From a virus: a stretch of 64,000 nucleotides of DNA. The position numbers and the translations under genes are program-made. The notes below the pieces were generated by a model. That model was not told the DNA's origin and ran no database searches. It saw only the letters and a program-made list of their open reading frames with translations. The DNA is taken from positions 33,145-97,144 of IMG/VR virus record IMGVR_UViG_3300042904_000107. One strand, 5' to 3'. Of this stretch, positions 8,617 to 63,514 are shown in pieces (the stretch's first letter is position 1; every line of letters starts with the position of its first letter).

Positions 8617-8841
8617 CTAGATTTTACGCCAACCGGCCTTCGTCACTTCATAAATGGTATCGGACATTTCAATTCGAGCACCGATTCTAGTATCTCGCGT
8701 TTGCAGGAACTCTTGTTCGCGGCGTATCTTAGGATTTTTGAACTTTTCCCAAGGCTTTACATCATTGAGTTCTACTGTTCCTTCAATGGTACTATTTTCT
8801 TCATGCATAATGTTAAACGGTATCCCTGTGGGGTTTTCCAA
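8617..8841 (-). CDS. hypothetical protein
   Basis: ORF overlapping regA end. Confidence 0.45.
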   Translation of the reverse strand: MENPTGIPFNIMHEENSTIEGTVELNDVKPWEKFKNPKIRREQEFLQTRDTRIGARIEMSDTIYEVTKAGWRKI

Positions 8842-9229
8842 TATTGTATTTGGGGATCAACTCCCATTCACCCTTCTCTTTGAATGGTAGGATTTTAATT
8901 TGGTTTATAGGTGCGGTTGGGTATGTGGCCGCTGAGTGCGGGACATTCGCGAGTGTTACTAAACCCCATTCCGCTAGAAGATTTGCAATCGTATTTCGGC
9001 GGGCTCTATCGTCATCTGAAAAGTTAGCCGGCTTACCATCTAAAAGGAACAATTCCTTAAAGTGTACGATATAATATTTCGCCTGCTTATGCAGGATGTG
9101 GCACGACTGGTAAAGCTTCTTTTCTTTTCTTGAGGCAATTCCAATTCTTGTCAGTGTTTCGCGGACTTTCAAAAAGTCATCGTCCGCAGCCAGACGCACC
9201 TCAATCAAATCATTAATGGACAAACTCAT
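8813..9229 (-). CDS. regA: translational repressor RegA
   Basis: DDFLKVRETLTRIGIAS, LYQSCHILHKQ, YYIVHFKELF, W.L.PKYNIG. Confidence 0.97.
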   Translation of the reverse strand: MSLSINDLIEVRLAADDDFLKVRETLTRIGIASRKEKKLYQSCHILHKQAKYYIVHFKELFLLDGKPANFSDDDRARRNTIANLLAEWGLVTLANVPHSAATYPTAPINQIKILPFKEKGEWELIPKYNIGKPHRDTV

Positions 9230-53500: not shown

Positions 53501-53573
53501 AAATTTCTGTCCTATTTAGGGGAAATGGTCTAGCTTGACAAACCATTTTGGCCTTGATATAATGGCCTAGAAA

Positions 53574-53726
53574 ATGAGCGAAGCGAAGAAAACGAAGAGT
53601 GCCGGTGGCACTAAGAAGCCGAAGAAGACAAAAACAGAAGATCTCGGCTACACTCGTATCGACATGAGCACCATGGAACCGGTCAGCGGTCGACCGATAG
53701 TCCTATTTCGAAGGATCCACGGATGA
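53574..53726 (+). CDS. small Lys-rich protein
   Basis: hand-translated 50 aa directly behind TTGACA-17-TATAAT (53535-53563). Confidence 0.45.
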   Translation: MSEAKKTKSAGGTKKPKKTKTEDLGYTRIDMSTMEPVSGRPIVLFRRIHG

Positions 53727-54908: not shown

Positions 54909-54951
54909 AACGCCATTTGACAATGGCCCGTTTTCGTGTTATCTTTTAATT

Positions 54952-55077
54952 GTTGTTGCGATAGAGTAATCGGGAAACGTCTTCGTCTGTCTCGCTAACT
55001 AACCTTGCGTTTCCCGATCCTTCTTTCTCGCGTCTCGCTGCGGCGGGCTGGAATCTCTCATCAGCCCGCCGCTTTTC
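54952..55077 (+). ncRNA. candidate small regulatory RNA
   Basis: TTGACA-17-TATCTT promoter (54917-54945), no ORF, 11-bp stem 54969-54979/55008-55018, terminator 55040-55076. Confidence 0.7.
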
Positions 55078-55090
55078 TCACCGAGACTGG

Positions 55091-55492: not shown

Positions 55493-55540
55493 GCCAAATC
55501 TATTGACTTCCTTGGTCTAGATGTAGTACCCTGTAATTGT

Positions 55541-55861
55541 ATGAAATACGCACTACTGACCTTCAATCTTTTTCCCGGCATCACCGGGACACTTGTGGTC
55601 GATGCCCTCAGCGCCGCTGAACTGATTGCCGATTCCGTCGTGAACGGAGAGACGGTGACTGTGACAGGTATCACCGTCCTTGAGGCCGCCGCATTGGCAC
55701 CGGAACTGTTTTCTGATCCGGTTTTTGTCCAAGACTGGGTGAACGCCACATGGACACAACTCAACAACTTCCTCGCAGCGGAAGCCGGCTACGAGAACCC
55801 GAACACCGAACTCGCCCAGGATTACGAGTACGGAGCCGCCGCACCAAATGGCCTCTGGTAA
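55541..55861 (+). CDS. acidic hypothetical protein
   Basis: ORF directly behind TTGACT promoter; hairpin after stop. Confidence 0.6.
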   Translation: MKYALLTFNLFPGITGTLVVDALSAAELIADSVVNGETVTVTGITVLEAAALAPELFSDPVFVQDWVNATWTQLNNFLAAEAGYENPNTELAQDYEYGAAAPNGLW

Positions 55862-56951: not shown

Positions 56952-57264
56952 CCTTCATTTCCTTTTCCCCTTTGGGTCGGCCGGTTCGGGGCCGACCCTT
57001 CTTTTTTGTCAGCCCTCGACTTGGCAGAATTCAGTGGATACCAGCGAAAATTTTTTTGGATAGAAAATCCTAGAAACAATTTTTATGGCCGTTCTGGTGG
57101 CTGGGTCTACGGTGCCCGCGAAAATTTTTTTATTTCAAAAATCTTGCGTCCGCATACAAACTTCTTGCCTCTTGAAGTTTCAGATTGTAGCTAGACACTC
57201 TCTGGAGAGCGTATTTCAGATAAAAAGATCTTAAATCACTTTGAGATACAAAGTAGTAAGTCAC

Positions 57265-57310
57265 AAAAAAGCGCGACTAACAGCGTTACGTATTCGCTAT
57301 CAGTCGCGCT
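57265..57310 (-). terminator. intrinsic terminator of the GG/CC-free unit
   Basis: AGCGCGACTGATAGCG..CGCTGTTAGTCGCGCT followed by a T run. Confidence 0.8.
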
Positions 57311-57319
57311 AACTCTCAC

Positions 57320-57550
57320 TTACATGCTGTCGTCTGTCTCAACTGCAAGAGCGTATGTGTGAAACTGCTCGTGATTCGCGTCGAATGTCAAACGCGCGAC
57401 ATCAAATTCTGTTACTTCGACTTTCTCTGTTGCTTCTGTGTTCTCGAAGAAGACAAACTGTGTAGCGAAGTAAGCTAACACAGTGTCATCTAAGCGAGTG
57501 TCAGTGTCTTCAATCGAGTTGAGTTGTTCTTTCAGTTGTCTATACGTCAT
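57320..57550 (-). CDS. acidic 76-aa protein with no Gly/Pro/Trp
   Basis: leader CGAAAGAGAGAACA-ATG identical to the upstream gene. Confidence 0.75.
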   Translation of the reverse strand: MTYRQLKEQLNSIEDTDTRLDDTVLAYFATQFVFFENTEATEKVEVTEFDVARLTFDANHEQFHTYALAVETDDSM

Positions 57551-57605
57551 TGTTCTCTCTTTCGTTGTTGTGCGCGCTAGTCACGTTCTAGCGCGCTCGT
57601 GTCTG

Positions 57606-58193
57606 CTAACTAAGTAACTGAAGCGCTTGCTCGTTCTGTGCTTCAGTCAATTGCTGTTCGTCGCGTTTCGCGTTCTGAGCGTCGATAGCGCGATCTGTTG
57701 CGCTCTGCTTCGCTTCGCGCTTCGCTTTCGTTTCGCGCTTCGCTTTCGTCGCTTCGTTCGTCGCTTTCGTCACAAGCGCTTTGCTGTCGCTTTGCTTCGC
57801 GTCGCTCGTTGCGCTTGCAAGCTTGCAACGCTTCAGATCGTACAGATGTGATGCTGTCTGAAGCGCTTTGTTCTTCGTCACGTAGTACACAGCGCAGCGT
57901 CGCTCACTATCGACGCTCACAGATGCGTGATAGATCTCAGAGCGCTTATACATGCGCTTTGCATAGCGCTGTTTCGCGTCGTCGCTCACGTTGAGTGCTT
58001 CGTCTTCTTTGATGTCGCGCACAGCGCAATAGCGCTTGAGAGCGTCTTTATCGACGTTGCGCGCAACGAGCGCATCGAAAAACGCGATGATGAGTTGAAT
58101 CATCGCGAATTGCTTCGCGTTGAACTTCGTAAGCGTGATGAGCACGCTATACGCTTCGTTCGTTTCTTTGTTAATCGCTTTTTGAATCGACAT
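57606..58193 (-). CDS. 195-aa protein with no Gly/Pro/Trp and Ala/Lys-rich helical C-terminus
   Basis: leader CGAAAGAGAGAACA-ATG; long ORF. Confidence 0.75.
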   Translation of the reverse strand: MSIQKAINKETNEAYSVLITLTKFNAKQFAMIQLIIAFFDALVARNVDKDALKRYCAVRDIKEDEALNVSDDAKQRYAKRMYKRSEIYHASVSVDSERRCAVYYVTKNKALQTASHLYDLKRCKLASATSDAKQSDSKALVTKATNEATKAKRETKAKREAKQSATDRAIDAQNAKRDEQQLTEAQNEQALQLLS

Positions 58194-58429
58194 TGTTCTC
58201 TCTTTCGTCTCGCAAGTTAGTTTGTGTTGTGCGTCTAGCGTGCTATGAAATCAGCATGTACTAGCGCGTTTAGTGCGTTTCAGTTGTCAAAGAGCAAGTT
58301 ACTAACACTACATTCAGTTGTTGCACTCGCGAAACATACGTGAGCTTGTCTAGCAAGCTTTAGACTCGAATCTAACAGACATGAGCACGAGCGCTGTTAG
58401 CGTTTCGCTTACTTCGTTCTGACATAATC

Positions 58430-58458
58430 AGAATAGCAGAAGCGAAAATGGGGAGCAA
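58430..58458 (-). promoter_or_regulatory. sigma70-type promoter of the GG/CC-free unit
   Basis: TTGCTC-17 bp-TATTCT with TG extended -10. Confidence 0.65.
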
Positions 58459-58794
58459 GTCGCGCAACTTCAATCATTGCTATAGTTTACAGACGTGTGC
58501 AACAAAAGTGTTTAATATCTGAATATCTGAAATAGCTGTATGTGTATGATTCGATTGACTTTATATGACAAAGCAGTGGTGCTCGAAACGACCGCAGCTT
58601 AAATTAGTAGAATCGCAAAAATAATCATTAAAAAACCTTAATCATTTAATTCTTGACAAACACACTCTAGGCCATTTGTCAAGGCGCGCCAGAATTAAAA
58701 AAATTTAATCTCACTTTGCGCCACAAAGTGTTGCATAAGCGAAGCTTCCTCATGCAAACTAGAGCCAGCTCGAAAGAGCGAAGCGAGACAGAAC

Positions 58795-59312: not shown

Positions 59313-59390
59313 CCGACGAGCCCCACCCCGCCAAGGTGGGGCTTTGCCAGGTCTCCACTGACCTTGGAAGGTCCGCTTACCATAAGTGGT

Positions 59391-59490
59391 CTATCCACAC
59401 CACTTCTCCATATGGAGCTATCCACACCGCTCTCCATACGGAGACATCCACACCTGTCTCCGTACGCTTATAATAAACAGAATATCCACA
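59391..59490. repeat. tandem ~26-bp repeats containing ATCCACAC
   Basis: units start at 59391, 59418, 59444; partial unit at 59482. Confidence 0.75.
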
Positions 59491-59624
59491 TCTCCATACT
59501 CCATAACTGCCATATCTCCACGTCCATTCTCCTCCTTCCAGCGGAGGGTGGTGGAGGGGTACTTGGGGGAGAAGCGCCCTTGCTTCCAGGCGGCTATGGT
59601 GCTATCCACAACCTCCGGTTGGAG

Positions 59625-59813
59625 CTAGTAGTAATATCCGTCGCGGCTCGTCACATACTGGATAGCCATGCGGCAAGCGGCGGTCAGTTCGTCGCCGTAC
59701 ACGTTGCTGTCAATGAGGAGACTGAACAATGTCTTGGCCTCCGGATTCGGGTCGGAGATGAGCAACGCCTGTAAGTTGGAGATATCCGACGCTTTCACTT
59801 GAATATCGGGCAT
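59625..59813 (-). CDS. small hypothetical protein (leaderless)
   Basis: ATG 6 nt after -10 TAGGCT. Confidence 0.55.
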   Translation of the reverse strand: MPDIQVKASDISNLQALLISDPNPEAKTLFSLLIDSNVYGDELTAACRMAIQYVTSRDGYYY

Positions 59814-60190
59814 GGACCAAGCCTAACACAGGAGAAACCCTAAAACAAGCGGAAAATGGTGTGGATATTGGGTTAGGCCGTCTGTAACCATCAACCATGA
59901 ATGGCCGATTGAATGGTGAAGATGCCAATAGGGTAGGATAGTATATTGGTAAGACGGTCTATTAGCACCTTAGATCCTGGGAAGGTGCTAATTAGAGTAA
60001 GTGGACCATCCGGACTATTAGCACCTAATAAAAAAAGGGGAGCCCGAAGGCTCCCCGAAGGTTTGGTGCTTGCGAGAGAGAACAACTTCACGGACAAAAC
60101 TTAGAACGGTGCCGTGTCCATTGACGCCCAGAGGACGATTACAAGGATGACGAACAGCACCGTGAGGATGTTGCCGATGAGCCGCATGGG

Positions 60191-60403
60191 TTACGCCGGC
60201 ACCTCCTCGGTCTTCTTGGTGCGCGGCTTGCGGACGGCCTTGGGCTTCTCGGCGGTCGCTTCCTTCTTGGCGCGCGGCTTGCGCGCCGTCTTCATCGGCG
60301 CCGGCTCGGCGACCCGAATCACGTGTCCAAACTTGAATTCTTTATTGGCGCTGATTCGCTGGTTGCATCCGCAACCGCACAGCTTGCTACCGTTCACGTT
60401 CAT
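60191..60403 (-). CDS. CGCGC motif protein with histone-like K/A/P tail
   Basis: AAGGAG SD; LCGCGC...F..GH. Confidence 0.65.
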   Translation of the reverse strand: MNVNGSKLCGCGCNQRISANKEFKFGHVIRVAEPAPMKTARKPRAKKEATAEKPKAVRKPRTKKTEEVPA

Positions 60404-60626
60404 TGTCTAGCTCCTTGGTGCGAGCCCCTGTCATCCGTTGACTATGATCCACCGGCACGGTTCCGACCGGTCAGCGGCCCGCGTTTCATATCTCAGCTAC
60501 AACTACAGTGTAACATCGGAGGGGTATAGAACGCAATAGGAATCTGGCCGGAGGTTTAACTGCGGGTAGTAGGTCGAATGGAGACCGCGGAAGGCCCGCT
60601 TAGAGTAAACGGGCCTTCCGAGGCGG

Positions 60627-60872
60627 TTAAACCGCCTTCACTCCCGAGCGCCAGAAGCGCGGCACCGCTTCACAAAGGAAGTCACCGTTGGTGCACACGA
60701 GATTGGAGAGCCACACGGGCTGTCCGATTTCCAAAGCCACCTCGGCGATAAACGTGGTGAAGTACGATTGGGCGTGGTGTTGGCTTTGAAAGCCCTTCGC
60801 CTTCATCTCCTTCACCACGGCGTTGTCGAAGGTGCGGAAGGTCGCGGTCGTAACCGTATCTTCGTATCTCAT
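60627..60872 (-). CDS. small hypothetical protein (leaderless)
   Basis: ATG 6 nt after TAGGAT. Confidence 0.6.
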   Translation of the reverse strand: MRYEDTVTTATFRTFDNAVVKEMKAKGFQSQHHAQSYFTTFIAEVALEIGQPVWLSNLVCTNGDFLCEAVPRFWRSGVKAV

Positions 60873-60991
60873 GGTCCAATCCTAACACAGGAGGTCTGTA
60901 GGGTACAAGAGGAGTTTTGGTCGCCACGGAAGGCGCGCTTATAATAAACGGGCCTTCCCGTGGAAGGCCGCCACCTGGCGGCCTCGGCGGA

Positions 60992-61111
60992 CTACTTGCC
61001 GGTGCGCAGGTGGCGCATGGCGTGGAGGAGAATCTCCATGCCCTTGGCAGATGTTGCAATCGAGTAGCACTTGTGGAGAATGGTGAATGTCGCTTCGTTG
61101 TTGTCTCTCAT
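60992..61111 (-). CDS. 39-aa peptide (leaderless)
   Basis: TTGACT-18-CATACT-6-ATG. Confidence 0.5.
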   Translation of the reverse strand: MRDNNEATFTILHKCYSIATSAKGMEILLHAMRHLRTGK

Positions 61112-61329
61112 GGTGATAGTATGAATCAGGATATTACCGGAAGTCAACAGGAATCTGGCCGGCCGGTCGGGTTAAACCCAGGGTAGTATGTCGAATGGAG
61201 ACCCGTAGAATGCGTTTTAAGCTACGGAAGATTGTCTAGACGTGTCTGAGTACGTGTAAATGATCTTCCGTAGCTTAGAAAGCGTTTAATGCGCGGGGTG
61301 AGCACGTGTACAGCGTGGAGAGACGTGCT

Positions 61330-61692
61330 CTACTGAGCACGTCTCGCTTTCGCTTCGATGATGTCCAGAATCTGCTTGCGATACTTGCAGATCGTTGGAA
61401 TGGGAGTCTTGGGCCGATTCCACGGACGACGCGCTTGCCGCTTCTCTGTCTCGCTCAGATGTTTGCCGCTCTTGATCTTTTCCGCAAGCTTGCTGAAGAG
61501 GAGCGAATCAGCGCGTTGGAGGCCGATCTCGTTCTTGATTGCCAGCGTCTCTCTCGCTTGACGTTCAAGTTCCGTTTGCCGATCGTGCAGCGCTACGATT
61601 GCACGTTCCAACCACGTGTCGTCCGTGGCAAGCATGAATGCAATCTGTTCCGTGGTGAATGTTGTCTTTCGCTTGTAGTTGACGTATGGCAT
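61330..61692 (-). CDS. hypothetical protein, paralog B
   Basis: closely similar to 58795-59163. Confidence 0.8.
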   Translation of the reverse strand: MPYVNYKRKTTFTTEQIAFMLATDDTWLERAIVALHDRQTELERQARETLAIKNEIGLQRADSLLFSKLAEKIKSGKHLSETEKRQARRPWNRPKTPIPTICKYRKQILDIIEAKARRAQ

Positions 61693-61798
61693 AAGTGTCT
61701 CGCTCTATTCTTAGTATACGTCAGGAAGGACCAGTTATTCAAGTGGAATTTGGCCGGAACATTTGCTTGTAATAAGCTGACCTTCCGAGGGAAACTCC

Positions 61799-61993
61799 TT
61801 ACTGGAGTTTCCCTCTCTTGAAAACTTCTGTGATTTCGCCCTGCGGCCCCGGAAGGCCAAGGAAGTATCGCAACGATCCACTTCCCTTCGACACTGTAAC
61901 GGAGGCGTGGACAAGTGTGCGAATCATCTCCGCCTTCTTGTAAGACTTTCCGAGATACATCGGAACTTCGTTGAAGTAAACGTATCGTTTCAT
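61799..61993 (-). CDS. small hypothetical protein (leaderless)
   Basis: TTGATC-18-TACACT-6-ATG. Confidence 0.55.
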   Translation of the reverse strand: MKRYVYFNEVPMYLGKSYKKAEMIRTLVHASVTVSKGSGSLRYFLGLPGPQGEITEVFKRGKLQ

Positions 61994-62089
61994 ATGTTTA
62001 GTGTAACGCTGGAGTGGATTGGAGATCAAGAGGAATTTAATAACCACGGAAGGCGCGCTTATAATAAGCTGGCCTTCCGAAAGGAGGGC

Positions 62090-62332
62090 TTATGCCCTCC
62101 GCTCCCACGGCCTCTTGCCGTTCACCATGTATGTGCGGACGGGAGGCGGTGCCGTCACACGGAGTGTGGGACGCTCGTCGCGGACAATGATGTGCATGCC
62201 GGTCGCCGGAGCATCGCTGTAGAACTCGCGGCAACCCATGATCTGCCGTTCTTGAAGGTCTTGGATGTGCATCTCATCCACACCGTGAATGAGGTCATCC
62301 GTGATCGTCTCTCGCAGGAGTACGTTGTTCAT
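62090..62332 (-). CDS. small hypothetical protein (leaderless)
   Basis: TTGACT-18-TATACT-6-ATG. Confidence 0.6.
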   Translation of the reverse strand: MNNVLLRETITDDLIHGVDEMHIQDLQERQIMGCREFYSDAPATGMHIIVRDERPTLRVTAPPPVRTYMVNGKRPWERRA

Positions 62333-62486
62333 GGTCCTAGTATAGAGCCGGAGCGGCTAGGAAGTCAACAGGAATCTGGCCCACCACGGAACAGTCGCTT
62401 ATAATAAGCAGGCCTTCCGCAGGAAAGCCGCCGTTGCGGGTCGGCGGCTTTCCGTTGGTGAAGGGGAGGGGCTTGTGCCCCTCCGC

Positions 62487-62963
62487 TTACTCGATGGCGG
62501 CGGCCGGTTCGGCGACCGTCTCGTTCATCGTCTCGCCGGCGGCGACGGGCTCGGCGGGCGTCTTCTTCCCCTTCTTCGGCTTGGCGGCTTCCTTCTTCGG
62601 AGCGGCGCCCTTCTTGGCTTTCGCCGCTTTCTTCTTGGGCGCCGGCGTCTCCGTCGCATCGTCGGCCGCCGGCGGGTGCTTCGCCGCGTGATCGATGAAC
62701 TTCTGGAGGTTGTACAGCGAGGAGCCTTCCTTCTTGCTCGCCTTCGCCATCGTGTTCTTGGTGATGAAGTACGGGCAGGAGGTGTGGTTGCGGAGCTTCT
62801 CGTGCGCCTCGCGCAACTCGACGCGGCGGAGAAGGCCCTTCGCGTAGCGGTCGTGCTCCTCCTGGGTGACGCCATTCTCGCCGATCGGCTTGGCGGTGAA
62901 GTACTTGATGATCTCCGAGCACAGGGCGACCTGCGTGGCGGAGAGTGCGATGCGGTTAATCAT
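62487..62963 (-). CDS. hypothetical protein with histone H1-like K/A/P tail
   Basis: PKKKAAKAKKGAAPKKEAAKPKKGKK. Confidence 0.7.
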   Translation of the reverse strand: MINRIALSATQVALCSEIIKYFTAKPIGENGVTQEEHDRYAKGLLRRVELREAHEKLRNHTSCPYFITKNTMAKASKKEGSSLYNLQKFIDHAAKHPPAADDATETPAPKKKAAKAKKGAAPKKEAAKPKKGKKTPAEPVAAGETMNETVAEPAAAIE

Positions 62964-63206
62964 TTGTCTGTTCTCGCTTTCGGGAGCGGGTTGCGCTCTA
63001 ACAATTACAGAATAACATAGGAGACCACGAGGTTCAAATGGATTCGGGATGGAGAATCATTAAAATTCATTAATGAGGTTGATGGAGGGAACGGACTATT
63101 AGAACCTCCGGAGGAGACGAACCACGGAAGGCGGTCTTACAATAAGCACAATCCGCCTTGACTTCCATTCACACCTCTTTTATGATCGTAGTATGAGCGA
63201 GACAGT

Positions 63207-63455
63207 ATGACCACAACGGAACTTGCACAATCAATCGGAAAGCCAGTGCTCCACGTCTCCGGCAACCTGAAGTTCATGTGTGTAGTGGCAGACGCGCGCA
63301 TCTCCTTCGGTAAGCCCCAGTTCCTCATCCGGCCCATTGCGGGCTACGGTGAACGTTGGGTGGAGTTCTCCTCCATCGAACCGTATCAGGACATGGCACA
63401 CCTCAAGCGGGCCGCCTCCTCCGTGAACCAGTTGGTGTTGAGGATGGGGCCATAG
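63207..63455 (+). CDS. small hypothetical protein
   Basis: TTGACT..TATGAT promoter at ~63158-63186. Confidence 0.6.
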   Translation: MTTTELAQSIGKPVLHVSGNLKFMCVVADARISFGKPQFLIRPIAGYGERWVEFSSIEPYQDMAHLKRAASSVNQLVLRMGP

Positions 63456-63514
63456 GGCCCAGCCTCGGAAGGCCAGCTTATTATAAGCGTGCCTTCCCCG
63501 CCGAAGCGGGGCTC

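Follow-up and report, generated by a model that had tools for sequence, protein, structure and literature searches.

The window analysed here, a stretch of 64,000 nt, makes up the final 64 kb of a 97,144-bp IMG/VR viral contig with a CheckV completeness estimate of 53%. The tail sheath is ~54% identical to the sheaths of Stenotrophomonas phage DLP_6 and the Sinorhizobium phiM12 group, and the phage is therefore a distant T4-like myovirus. Structural and replication genes occupy the minus strand up to ~53.5 kb, and from there to the contig end small genes stand behind sigma-70-type promoters; this part is the early, hyperplastic region. Ribosome-binding sites elsewhere in the phage are the ordinary AAGGAG/GGAG, and GAGA/GAGG-type sites are used by many of its other genes. 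Most early promoters have a GGCCTA/GGTCTAGC element just upstream of the -35, and many early genes begin 6-12 nt past the -10 hexamer, which would leave their mRNAs leaderless or nearly so. The coordinates of the features discussed below are collected in Table 1.

Within the early region, the stretch at 54917-55078 had been described in an earlier note, made from the letters alone, as a promoter-stem-terminator unit without an ORF. By prediction this anatomy is present (promoter, hairpin, terminator, no ORF), and all the sequences quoted in the note were found where it had placed them. The promoter has a perfect -35, a 17-nt spacer, and an extended -10; it is a consensus match, and the start site at ~54952-54954 is predicted. 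The neighbouring early promoters at 53535 and 54574 have the identical perfect -35 and 17-nt spacer, and the promoter at 54917 is without the GGCCTA/GGTCTAGC element. No ORF of at least 30 aa was found on the plus strand of 54953-55090. The ~126-nt RNA folds at -52 kcal/mol (z = -6.0), and none of 200 shuffled sequences folded as well. When the window was scanned with the Rfam 15 covariance models, no match reached the gathering threshold except 4 tRNAs, and the best permissive hit for the unit had 24 bits versus a threshold of 54.

Two segments of the RNA, called seed 1 and seed 2 here, are predicted to be largely unpaired, and both contain CUCGCU. Seed 2 was quoted in the note as TTCTTTCTCGCGTCTCGC (55021-55038); its 3' half (GUCUCGCU) is ~0.8-0.9 unpaired, and its 5' half is able to pair with the 5' end of the RNA. 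The predicted terminator is absent from the consensus terminator scan because its loop has 11 nt and it is followed by only 4 consecutive U, and it would be one-directional because the minus strand has no T-run. The short U tract suggests partial read-through. From this layout we infer that the RNA is made and that most of it ends at 55040-55079.

Table 1 Predicted features of the unit, its proposed targets, and related elements, in window coordinates
Feature	Position	Strand	Evidence or value
Sigma-70-type promoter, TTGACA-17-TATCTT, TG before -10	54917-54945	+	Consensus match 10/12
Predicted terminated RNA, ~126 nt (candidate sRNA and leader of 55091)	54953-55078	+	Fold, no ORF
Hairpin, 12-bp stem 54969-54980/55006-55017, 25-nt loop	54969-55017	+	-17 kcal/mol alone
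Seed 1, GTCTGTCTCGCT, in hairpin loop, complement of AGCGAGACAGAC	54985-54996	+	Mean unpaired probability 0.68
Seed 2, TTCTTTCTCGCGTCTCGCT, linker between hairpin and terminator	55021-55039	+	Mean unpaired probability 0.52
Predicted intrinsic terminator, 11-bp G+C-rich stem, 11-nt loop, then UUUUCUC	55040-55079	+	-25.2 kcal/mol alone
Downstream gene, 133 aa	55091-55492	+	Homologues P0002, P0003
Predicted seed 2 target, GCGAGACGAAAGAGAGAA, 2 nt before ATG 58193 (-20 to -3)	58196-58213	-	Hybridisation -26.1, net -13.4 kcal/mol
Predicted seed 1 target, AGCGAGACAGA, 2 nt before ATG 58795	58782-58792	+	Net -15.0 kcal/mol
Predicted seed 1 target, AGCGAGACA, 3 nt before ATG 61692	61696-61704	-	Net -12.2 kcal/mol
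Predicted seed 1 target, AGCGAGAACAGAC, one bulged A, 2 nt before ATG 62963	62966-62978	-	Net -14.2 kcal/mol
Predicted seed 1 target, AGCGAGACAG, 1 nt before ATG 63207	63196-63205	+	Net -12.4 kcal/mol
Extra sense copy of AGCGAGACAGA in coding sequence 61330-61692	61446-61456	-	15/16 nt complementary to seed-1 region (our reading)
RegA homologue (PF01818)	8837-9208	-	E = 8e-43
Near-leaderless early starts	53563-53574, 55533-55541 (+ order); 62339-62332, 17363-17354, 1000-983 (-)	+ and -	

The unit as leader of gene 55091

Gene 55091, whose two homologues have 72-76% identity to its protein and the same N-terminus, is on sequence a genuine gene. The U tract ends 12 nt ahead of its ATG, and a consensus scan gave no promoter match between 54946 and 55091; the next gene, 55541, has its own promoter. 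Because the unit lies 12 nt from ATG 55091 without an intervening promoter, it is also the leader of that gene, and expression of the promoterless 55091 must depend on transcripts that pass the terminator. The unit is thus not free-standing.

The layout is that of an attenuator or leader: a promoter, a structured leader, a terminator, and then a promoterless gene. A cis leader or partial terminator that meters read-through into 55091 as a delayed-early gene would, with a purely cis role, account for the anatomy of the unit. Under such an account, the start-region motif described below would be a weak Shine-Dalgarno (SD) module inherited by gene duplication and cassette shuffling in the hyperplastic early region, and the complementarity to the unit would be functionless, a by-product of G/A/C-rich composition. 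We consider this possible and on balance unlikely. No mutually exclusive antiterminator helix was predicted in nascent RNA folds up to 55052 or 55061, where the 5' half of the terminator lies in a weak local hairpin only, and hence there is no obvious switch; the Rfam scan likewise gave no riboswitch or leader family match for the unit. Sequestration of the 55091 start region in cis by the seeds was also considered and is disfavoured in the read-through fold (net -1.3).

Homologues of the unit were sought in several ways. Scans of viral, metagenome, and genome contigs with the 55091 protein or its alignment gave no homologue of the unit, IMG/VR searches with a stem pattern and a two-seed pattern gave chance matches only, and blastn and tblastn searches against GenBank phages gave nothing useful.

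Start regions of five early genes and their shared motif

Five early genes have the motif AGCGAGAC(AG) directly ahead of their ATG, with 1-3 nt between the end of the motif and the start codon (2-4 nt when counted from the shared AGCGAGAC core). Homologues start at these same positions of the proteins, which makes the five start codons credible. The note had claimed complementarity of seed 1 to the sequences before ATGs 58795, 63207, 61692, and 62963, and this is present; the pairing of seed 2 with the site before ATG 58193 is likewise 16 of 18 nt with one G-U, in two 8-bp blocks that flank an internal loop of 2 nt. Each seed suits one variant of the motif, with the GACAG sites matching seed 1 and the GACGAAAGAGAGAA site matching seed 2. 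All five predicted duplexes span -21 to -2, and one extends to +8. The claim that none of the five leaders has GGAG was confirmed across 80 nt upstream.

The targets belong to about three families rather than being five independent hits. Genes 58795 and 61692 (minus strand) are 77%-identical paralogues of family phrog_21015, genes 58193 and 62963 (both minus strand), whose products have Lys/Ala-rich tails, are weak paralogues (23% identity, E = 0.017), and gene 63207, which encodes an 82-aa protein, represents the third family. All five sites are complementary as the note had it, and because two paralogue pairs are among the targets the five are not independent. Such a reduced number of independent targets favours the cis-leader account, in which the motif would have been inherited by duplication.

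The distance of the motif from the predicted promoters is variable (~+2 for 61692 and 63207, ~+27 for 62963, and >+200 for 58193), and its distance from the ATG is constant. The predicted leaders of the targets range from ~14 nt to >200 nt; those of 61692 (TATACT at 61713-61718) and 63207 (promoter TTGACT-17-TATGAT at 63158-63186) have only ~14 nt. The 10-12-nt motif is the sole conserved island in otherwise unalignable upstream regions. A motif that is fixed to the ATG, varies in its distance to the promoter, and forms an isolated island points to a role at the mRNA level. The absence of any extended shared cassette around it argues against cassette shuffling as proposed in the cis-leader account. 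At 63193-63210, in the leader of gene 63207, most of a 5-codon ORF (ATG AGC GAG ACA GTA TGA) consists of the motif; this ORF would start at the predicted transcription start of 63207, and its stop overlaps the ATG of the gene (ATGA); leaderless uORF coupling is possible at this gene.

The GAG core of the motif lies 5-9 nt before each ATG, which is normal SD spacing, so the label "SD-less" given to these genes was overstated and "weak SD" is fairer. The same core would be expected if the motif were simply a weak-SD module, and the common GAGA/GAGG-type sites of this phage also agree with the cis-leader account.

The AGCGAGAC 8-mer occurs in 8 copies in 97 kb on both strands, where ~3 are expected by our estimate. 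Three copies are at starts, two are antisense in the unit 43 nt apart, two are in the 61330-61692 coding sequence in sense, and one is elsewhere. Because AGCGAGAC occurs twice in sense inside the coding sequence of one target, local composition favours such words; the copy at 61446-61456 may offer the RNA a second place to pair or may be a coincidence of composition. Both antisense copies lie within mostly unpaired stretches of the unit, and the chance that any two same-strand copies lie so close is ~0.01 genome-wide, as estimated from the 8 copies. This improbability counts against functionless complementarity.

Relatives were found by scanning metagenomes with an alignment of phrog_21015-family homologues, which gave six contigs (L016 to L021); the same scans of viral and genome contigs were empty. 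L016, from another metagenome, encodes a 59%-identical homologue with AGCGAGACAGCGAGACAGAC abutting the ATG, and the last 12 nt of this sequence are a perfect 12/12 complement of seed 1, which beats every target in the window. The motif is older than this phage because a homologue so distant carries the seed-1 complement before its ATG. The homologues on L017/L018, L019, and L021 have a canonical GGAGG or GAGGAG at the place of the motif, which is in favour of the cis-leader account. L020, which is syntenic with the window, has the start regions GAAAGGGGATAGAC and GAAAGTGAGTTAACGAC, and one of its genes is leaderless; these differing starts count against the sRNA reading. On these sequences the motif occupies the SD position and is exchangeable for an ordinary SD.

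The motif may instead be a protein-binding site, either for a translational repressor such as the RegA homologue encoded by this phage or for a DNA-binding regulator, with the copies in the unit as further sites for the protein. In T4, the start regions of many early mRNAs are sites of repression by RegA (PMC3014915), and a DNA site would explain the occurrence of the motif on both strands. Known RegA operators, however, are A+U-rich and unstructured (PMC3014915), whereas the motif is G/C/A-rich. It is also absent from the regA start region here, which is an ordinary AAGGAGA; the specificity of this RegA may differ from that of T4. RegA is autoregulated in T4. A DNA operator would be expected at a fixed distance from the promoter, whereas here the distance to the ATG is the fixed one, and an RNA-binding protein would not bind the antisense copies. 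We therefore regard a protein site as very unlikely. A search for RegB (PF10715) gave no match on this half-genome, and the control genomes were likewise without a match, so this negative carries no weight.

About 8 copies of a ~35-nt palindromic element lie at 59360-63500 between single-gene early cassettes. The element has a stem GGAAGGC.., a loop region CTTATAATAAG, and contains TATAAT. Promoter/stem-loop (PeSL) cassettes are known in T4-like phages (PMC2839356, PMC4122927), and the palindromic elements at 59.3-63.5 kb resemble them. The published PeSL repeat includes the SD and start codon (PMC4122927), and repeats reaching that far could spread the start-region motif among cassettes, as the cis-leader account would have it. 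Such spread is insufficient because the antisense copies sit in a separate unit.

The gene at 57606-58193 (minus strand) is the first gene of a GG/CC-free unit. In the stretch at 57205-58449 neither dinucleotide occurs, and from one to the next (57204 to 58450) the distance is 1,246 nt. Beyond a single GGGG another 126 nt are GG/CC-free, whereas no other gap in the window exceeds 65 nt. The first 1,837 nt of L020, also from another metagenome, are without GG or CC at 43% G+C; this stretch holds a minus-strand gene of the same family and adjoins a phrog_21015-family gene. Because the syntenic L020 shares it, the absence of GG and CC is conserved and not an accident. The two genes of the GG/CC-free unit have an identical sequence up to the start codon, ACGAAAGAGAGAACAATG (at 57551-57568 and 58194-58211, both minus strand), which looks like a reused GG-free ribosome-binding module. 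The proteins of 62487-62963 and 57606-58193 (both minus strand) have Lys/Ala(/Pro)-rich C-terminal tails that are histone H1-like, and the latter, the GG/CC-free copy, has zero Gly, Pro, and Trp.

A run search found the phage sequence in two soil metagenome studies, both DNA runs, and no RNA run was among the matches. The contigs of the two DNA runs have zero variants in the unit or in the motifs, and covariation is therefore unreadable from them. The unit and the 58193 and 58795 targets are on one contig from an independent assembler, and the second soil study links 58193, 58795, and 61692. One contig from the probable source run passes directly from 61235 to 63466 and omits the 2,230 nt between them (61236-63465), a block that holds three of the five predicted targets and was assembled separately at greater depth (21 vs 13.5). 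The skipped block looks like a presence/absence polymorphism of cassettes or a related co-occurring phage.

Strength of the complementarity

Net energy was taken as duplex energy together with the cost of opening the two RNAs. Sliding sub-windows were used, also in the random-window control, because a single minimum-energy duplex for all 126 nt settles on the stems and misses the sites. In an accessibility-corrected ranking in the manner of IntaRNA, the five targets claimed by the note came out as the top five (ranks 1-5) among the ~157 start regions of the 97-kb contig, with net energies of -14.1 to -10.5 kcal/mol (mean of all start regions +1.0, sd 5.5). Neighbouring non-targets were unfavourable (57550 at net +9.3 and 55091 at net -1.3). 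These ranks argue against the complementarity being a by-product of composition.

For the control, 66 random genomic windows were treated in the same way, in a blind version of the procedure. At least 6 start regions at -10 kcal/mol or better, no fewer than for the unit, were found in 1 of the 66 windows and at least 5 in 4 of the 66; the observed third-best net energy was reached by none, and the fourth-best was tied by one. The net-energy control thus gives p ~0.02-0.06. By raw duplex energy the unit is within the top 3-8% of 508 random windows (p 0.03-0.08), a measure that does not single out the sites because bulged G+C-rich duplexes elsewhere score alike. Counts of start regions sharing a 9- or 10-mer complement are uninformative, since windows containing an anti-SD match many canonical sites. 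Similar energies therefore arise in random windows a few percent of the time, which leaves some room for the cis-leader account, and the complementarity signal is real but moderate.

The view of the unit as a trans-acting multi-target sRNA accordingly keeps part of its ground in silico, with the anatomy, the unpaired seeds, and the top-five ranking on its side, and loses part of it to the leader role, the paralogous targets, and the modest statistics.

Proposed action of the RNA and known systems

The reading we tentatively prefer is a terminated, leader-derived antisense sRNA that pairs with five early start regions and blocks initiation, with read-through expressing 55091. Most transcription from the early sigma-70 promoter at 54917 would end at the hairpin-plus-U4 terminator, which would free a structured ~126-nt RNA, and the read-through fraction would be the mRNA of 55091. 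The freed RNA would expose seed 1 within the hairpin loop of 25 nt and seed 2 in the linker that precedes the terminator, and the CUCGCU of both would complement the AGCGAG(AC) motif at the SD position of a set of early mRNAs. Pairing over -21 to -2 of the five starts, at a predicted net of ~-10 to -15 kcal/mol, would exclude the 30S subunit in the cell, and translation of a small regulon would fall as the RNA accumulates. The regulon would consist of the two phrog_21015 paralogues, the two members of the family with Lys/Ala-rich tails, and the 82-aa protein; genes with GGAG-type sites would be unaffected.

The RNA may also pair with the same sites and activate or protect its targets, for instance by shielding the starts from an endonuclease or by opening inhibitory structure in the ~220-nt leader of the GG/CC-free unit. 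The pairing evidence is identical for both directions of effect, and a T-even phage is reported to shield one of its transcripts from RNase E by means of a host sRNA (bioRxiv 10.64898/2026.06.19.733364). All five duplexes are nevertheless within the 30S binding window, and two of the targets have leaders of ~14 nt, in which there is nothing to open. Activation is thus improbable. RBS-occluding sRNAs in known cases repress translation.

A bolder reading, which we hold to be doubtful, is that the motif is a private initiation signal, a GG-avoiding SD substitute for a pioneer or early regulon, and that a dedicated RNA, an "anti-SD mimic", times its shut-off. AAG-C-GAG or AAG-A-GAG would replace AAGGAG in the 1.25-kb GG/CC-free operon and its sister cassettes, and the CUCGCU seeds would out-compete the ribosome at these sites alone, as an RNA counterpart of T4 RegA/RegB.

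The known base-pairing RNAs encoded by phages come mainly from temperate phages and prophages and have immunity genes or host genes as targets. The c4 RNA of P1/P7 is an antisense phage RNA with two short complementary segments, and one of its target segments covers the RBS (PMC12197685). The candidate is like c4 in being phage-encoded and, as proposed, in acting in trans on phage mRNA through two exposed segments and in blocking translation. In contrast, c4 is cut out of the very operon transcript under its control and has its role in the lysogenic immunity of a temperate phage, whereas the candidate has a predicted promoter and terminator of its own, is 3-8 kb away from its predicted targets in five transcription units, and belongs to a T4-like lytic genome; it has no sequence or Rfam similarity to c4. 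Multi-target RBS-occluding sRNAs of bacteria and prophages, such as DicF of prophage Qin, GcvB, and RyhB, have, as predicted for the candidate, their own promoter, an exposed seed, and an intrinsic terminator, and one conserved seed serves several start regions. They act mostly on host genes and depend on Hfq, whereas all predicted targets of the candidate are phage early genes with one motif replacing a strong SD, and its 3' U tract is short. In terminated leader RNAs with a trans action, such as the riboswitch-terminated transcripts SreA/SreB of Listeria, as proposed for the candidate, a promoter-proximal terminator releases a trans-pairing RNA and read-through makes the downstream mRNA; the candidate differs in having no recognisable ligand-binding or switch structure.

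T4 RegA/RegB offer a functional likeness, namely shut-off of early-mRNA translation through a short element at the SD position (PMC3014915). They are proteins, and RegA recognises A+U-rich sites and RegB cuts GGAG, whereas the candidate would act by RNA-RNA pairing at AGCGAGAC. PeSL elements are comparable in that the region of the target genes is made up of early cassettes of one gene each, with ~8 TATAAT-containing stem-loops between them; the AGCGAGAC motif, however, is separate from the palindromic element, and PeSLs leave the antisense copies in the unit unexplained. The candidate matched no described RNA family and, by analogy, resembles c4 and the RBS-occluding sRNAs in mechanism and appears parallel to RegA/RegB in function.

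A 2010 review states that T4 was still without any characterised regulatory RNA that acts in trans (PMC3014915). A literature search found no later trans-acting regulatory RNA of T4-type phages, and a recent report is limited to a host sRNA co-opted by T2 (bioRxiv 10.64898/2026.06.19.733364). If real, the RNA would be an RNA-based switch-off of a defined early gene set, tied to an unusual shared start-region motif and to the adjacent GG/CC-free operon. A confirmed case would be notable, given the lack of characterised examples from T4-type phages at the time of that review (PMC3014915). Were the private-signal reading true, no T4-like virus before this one would have had a trans-acting regulatory RNA with a regulon of phage genes.
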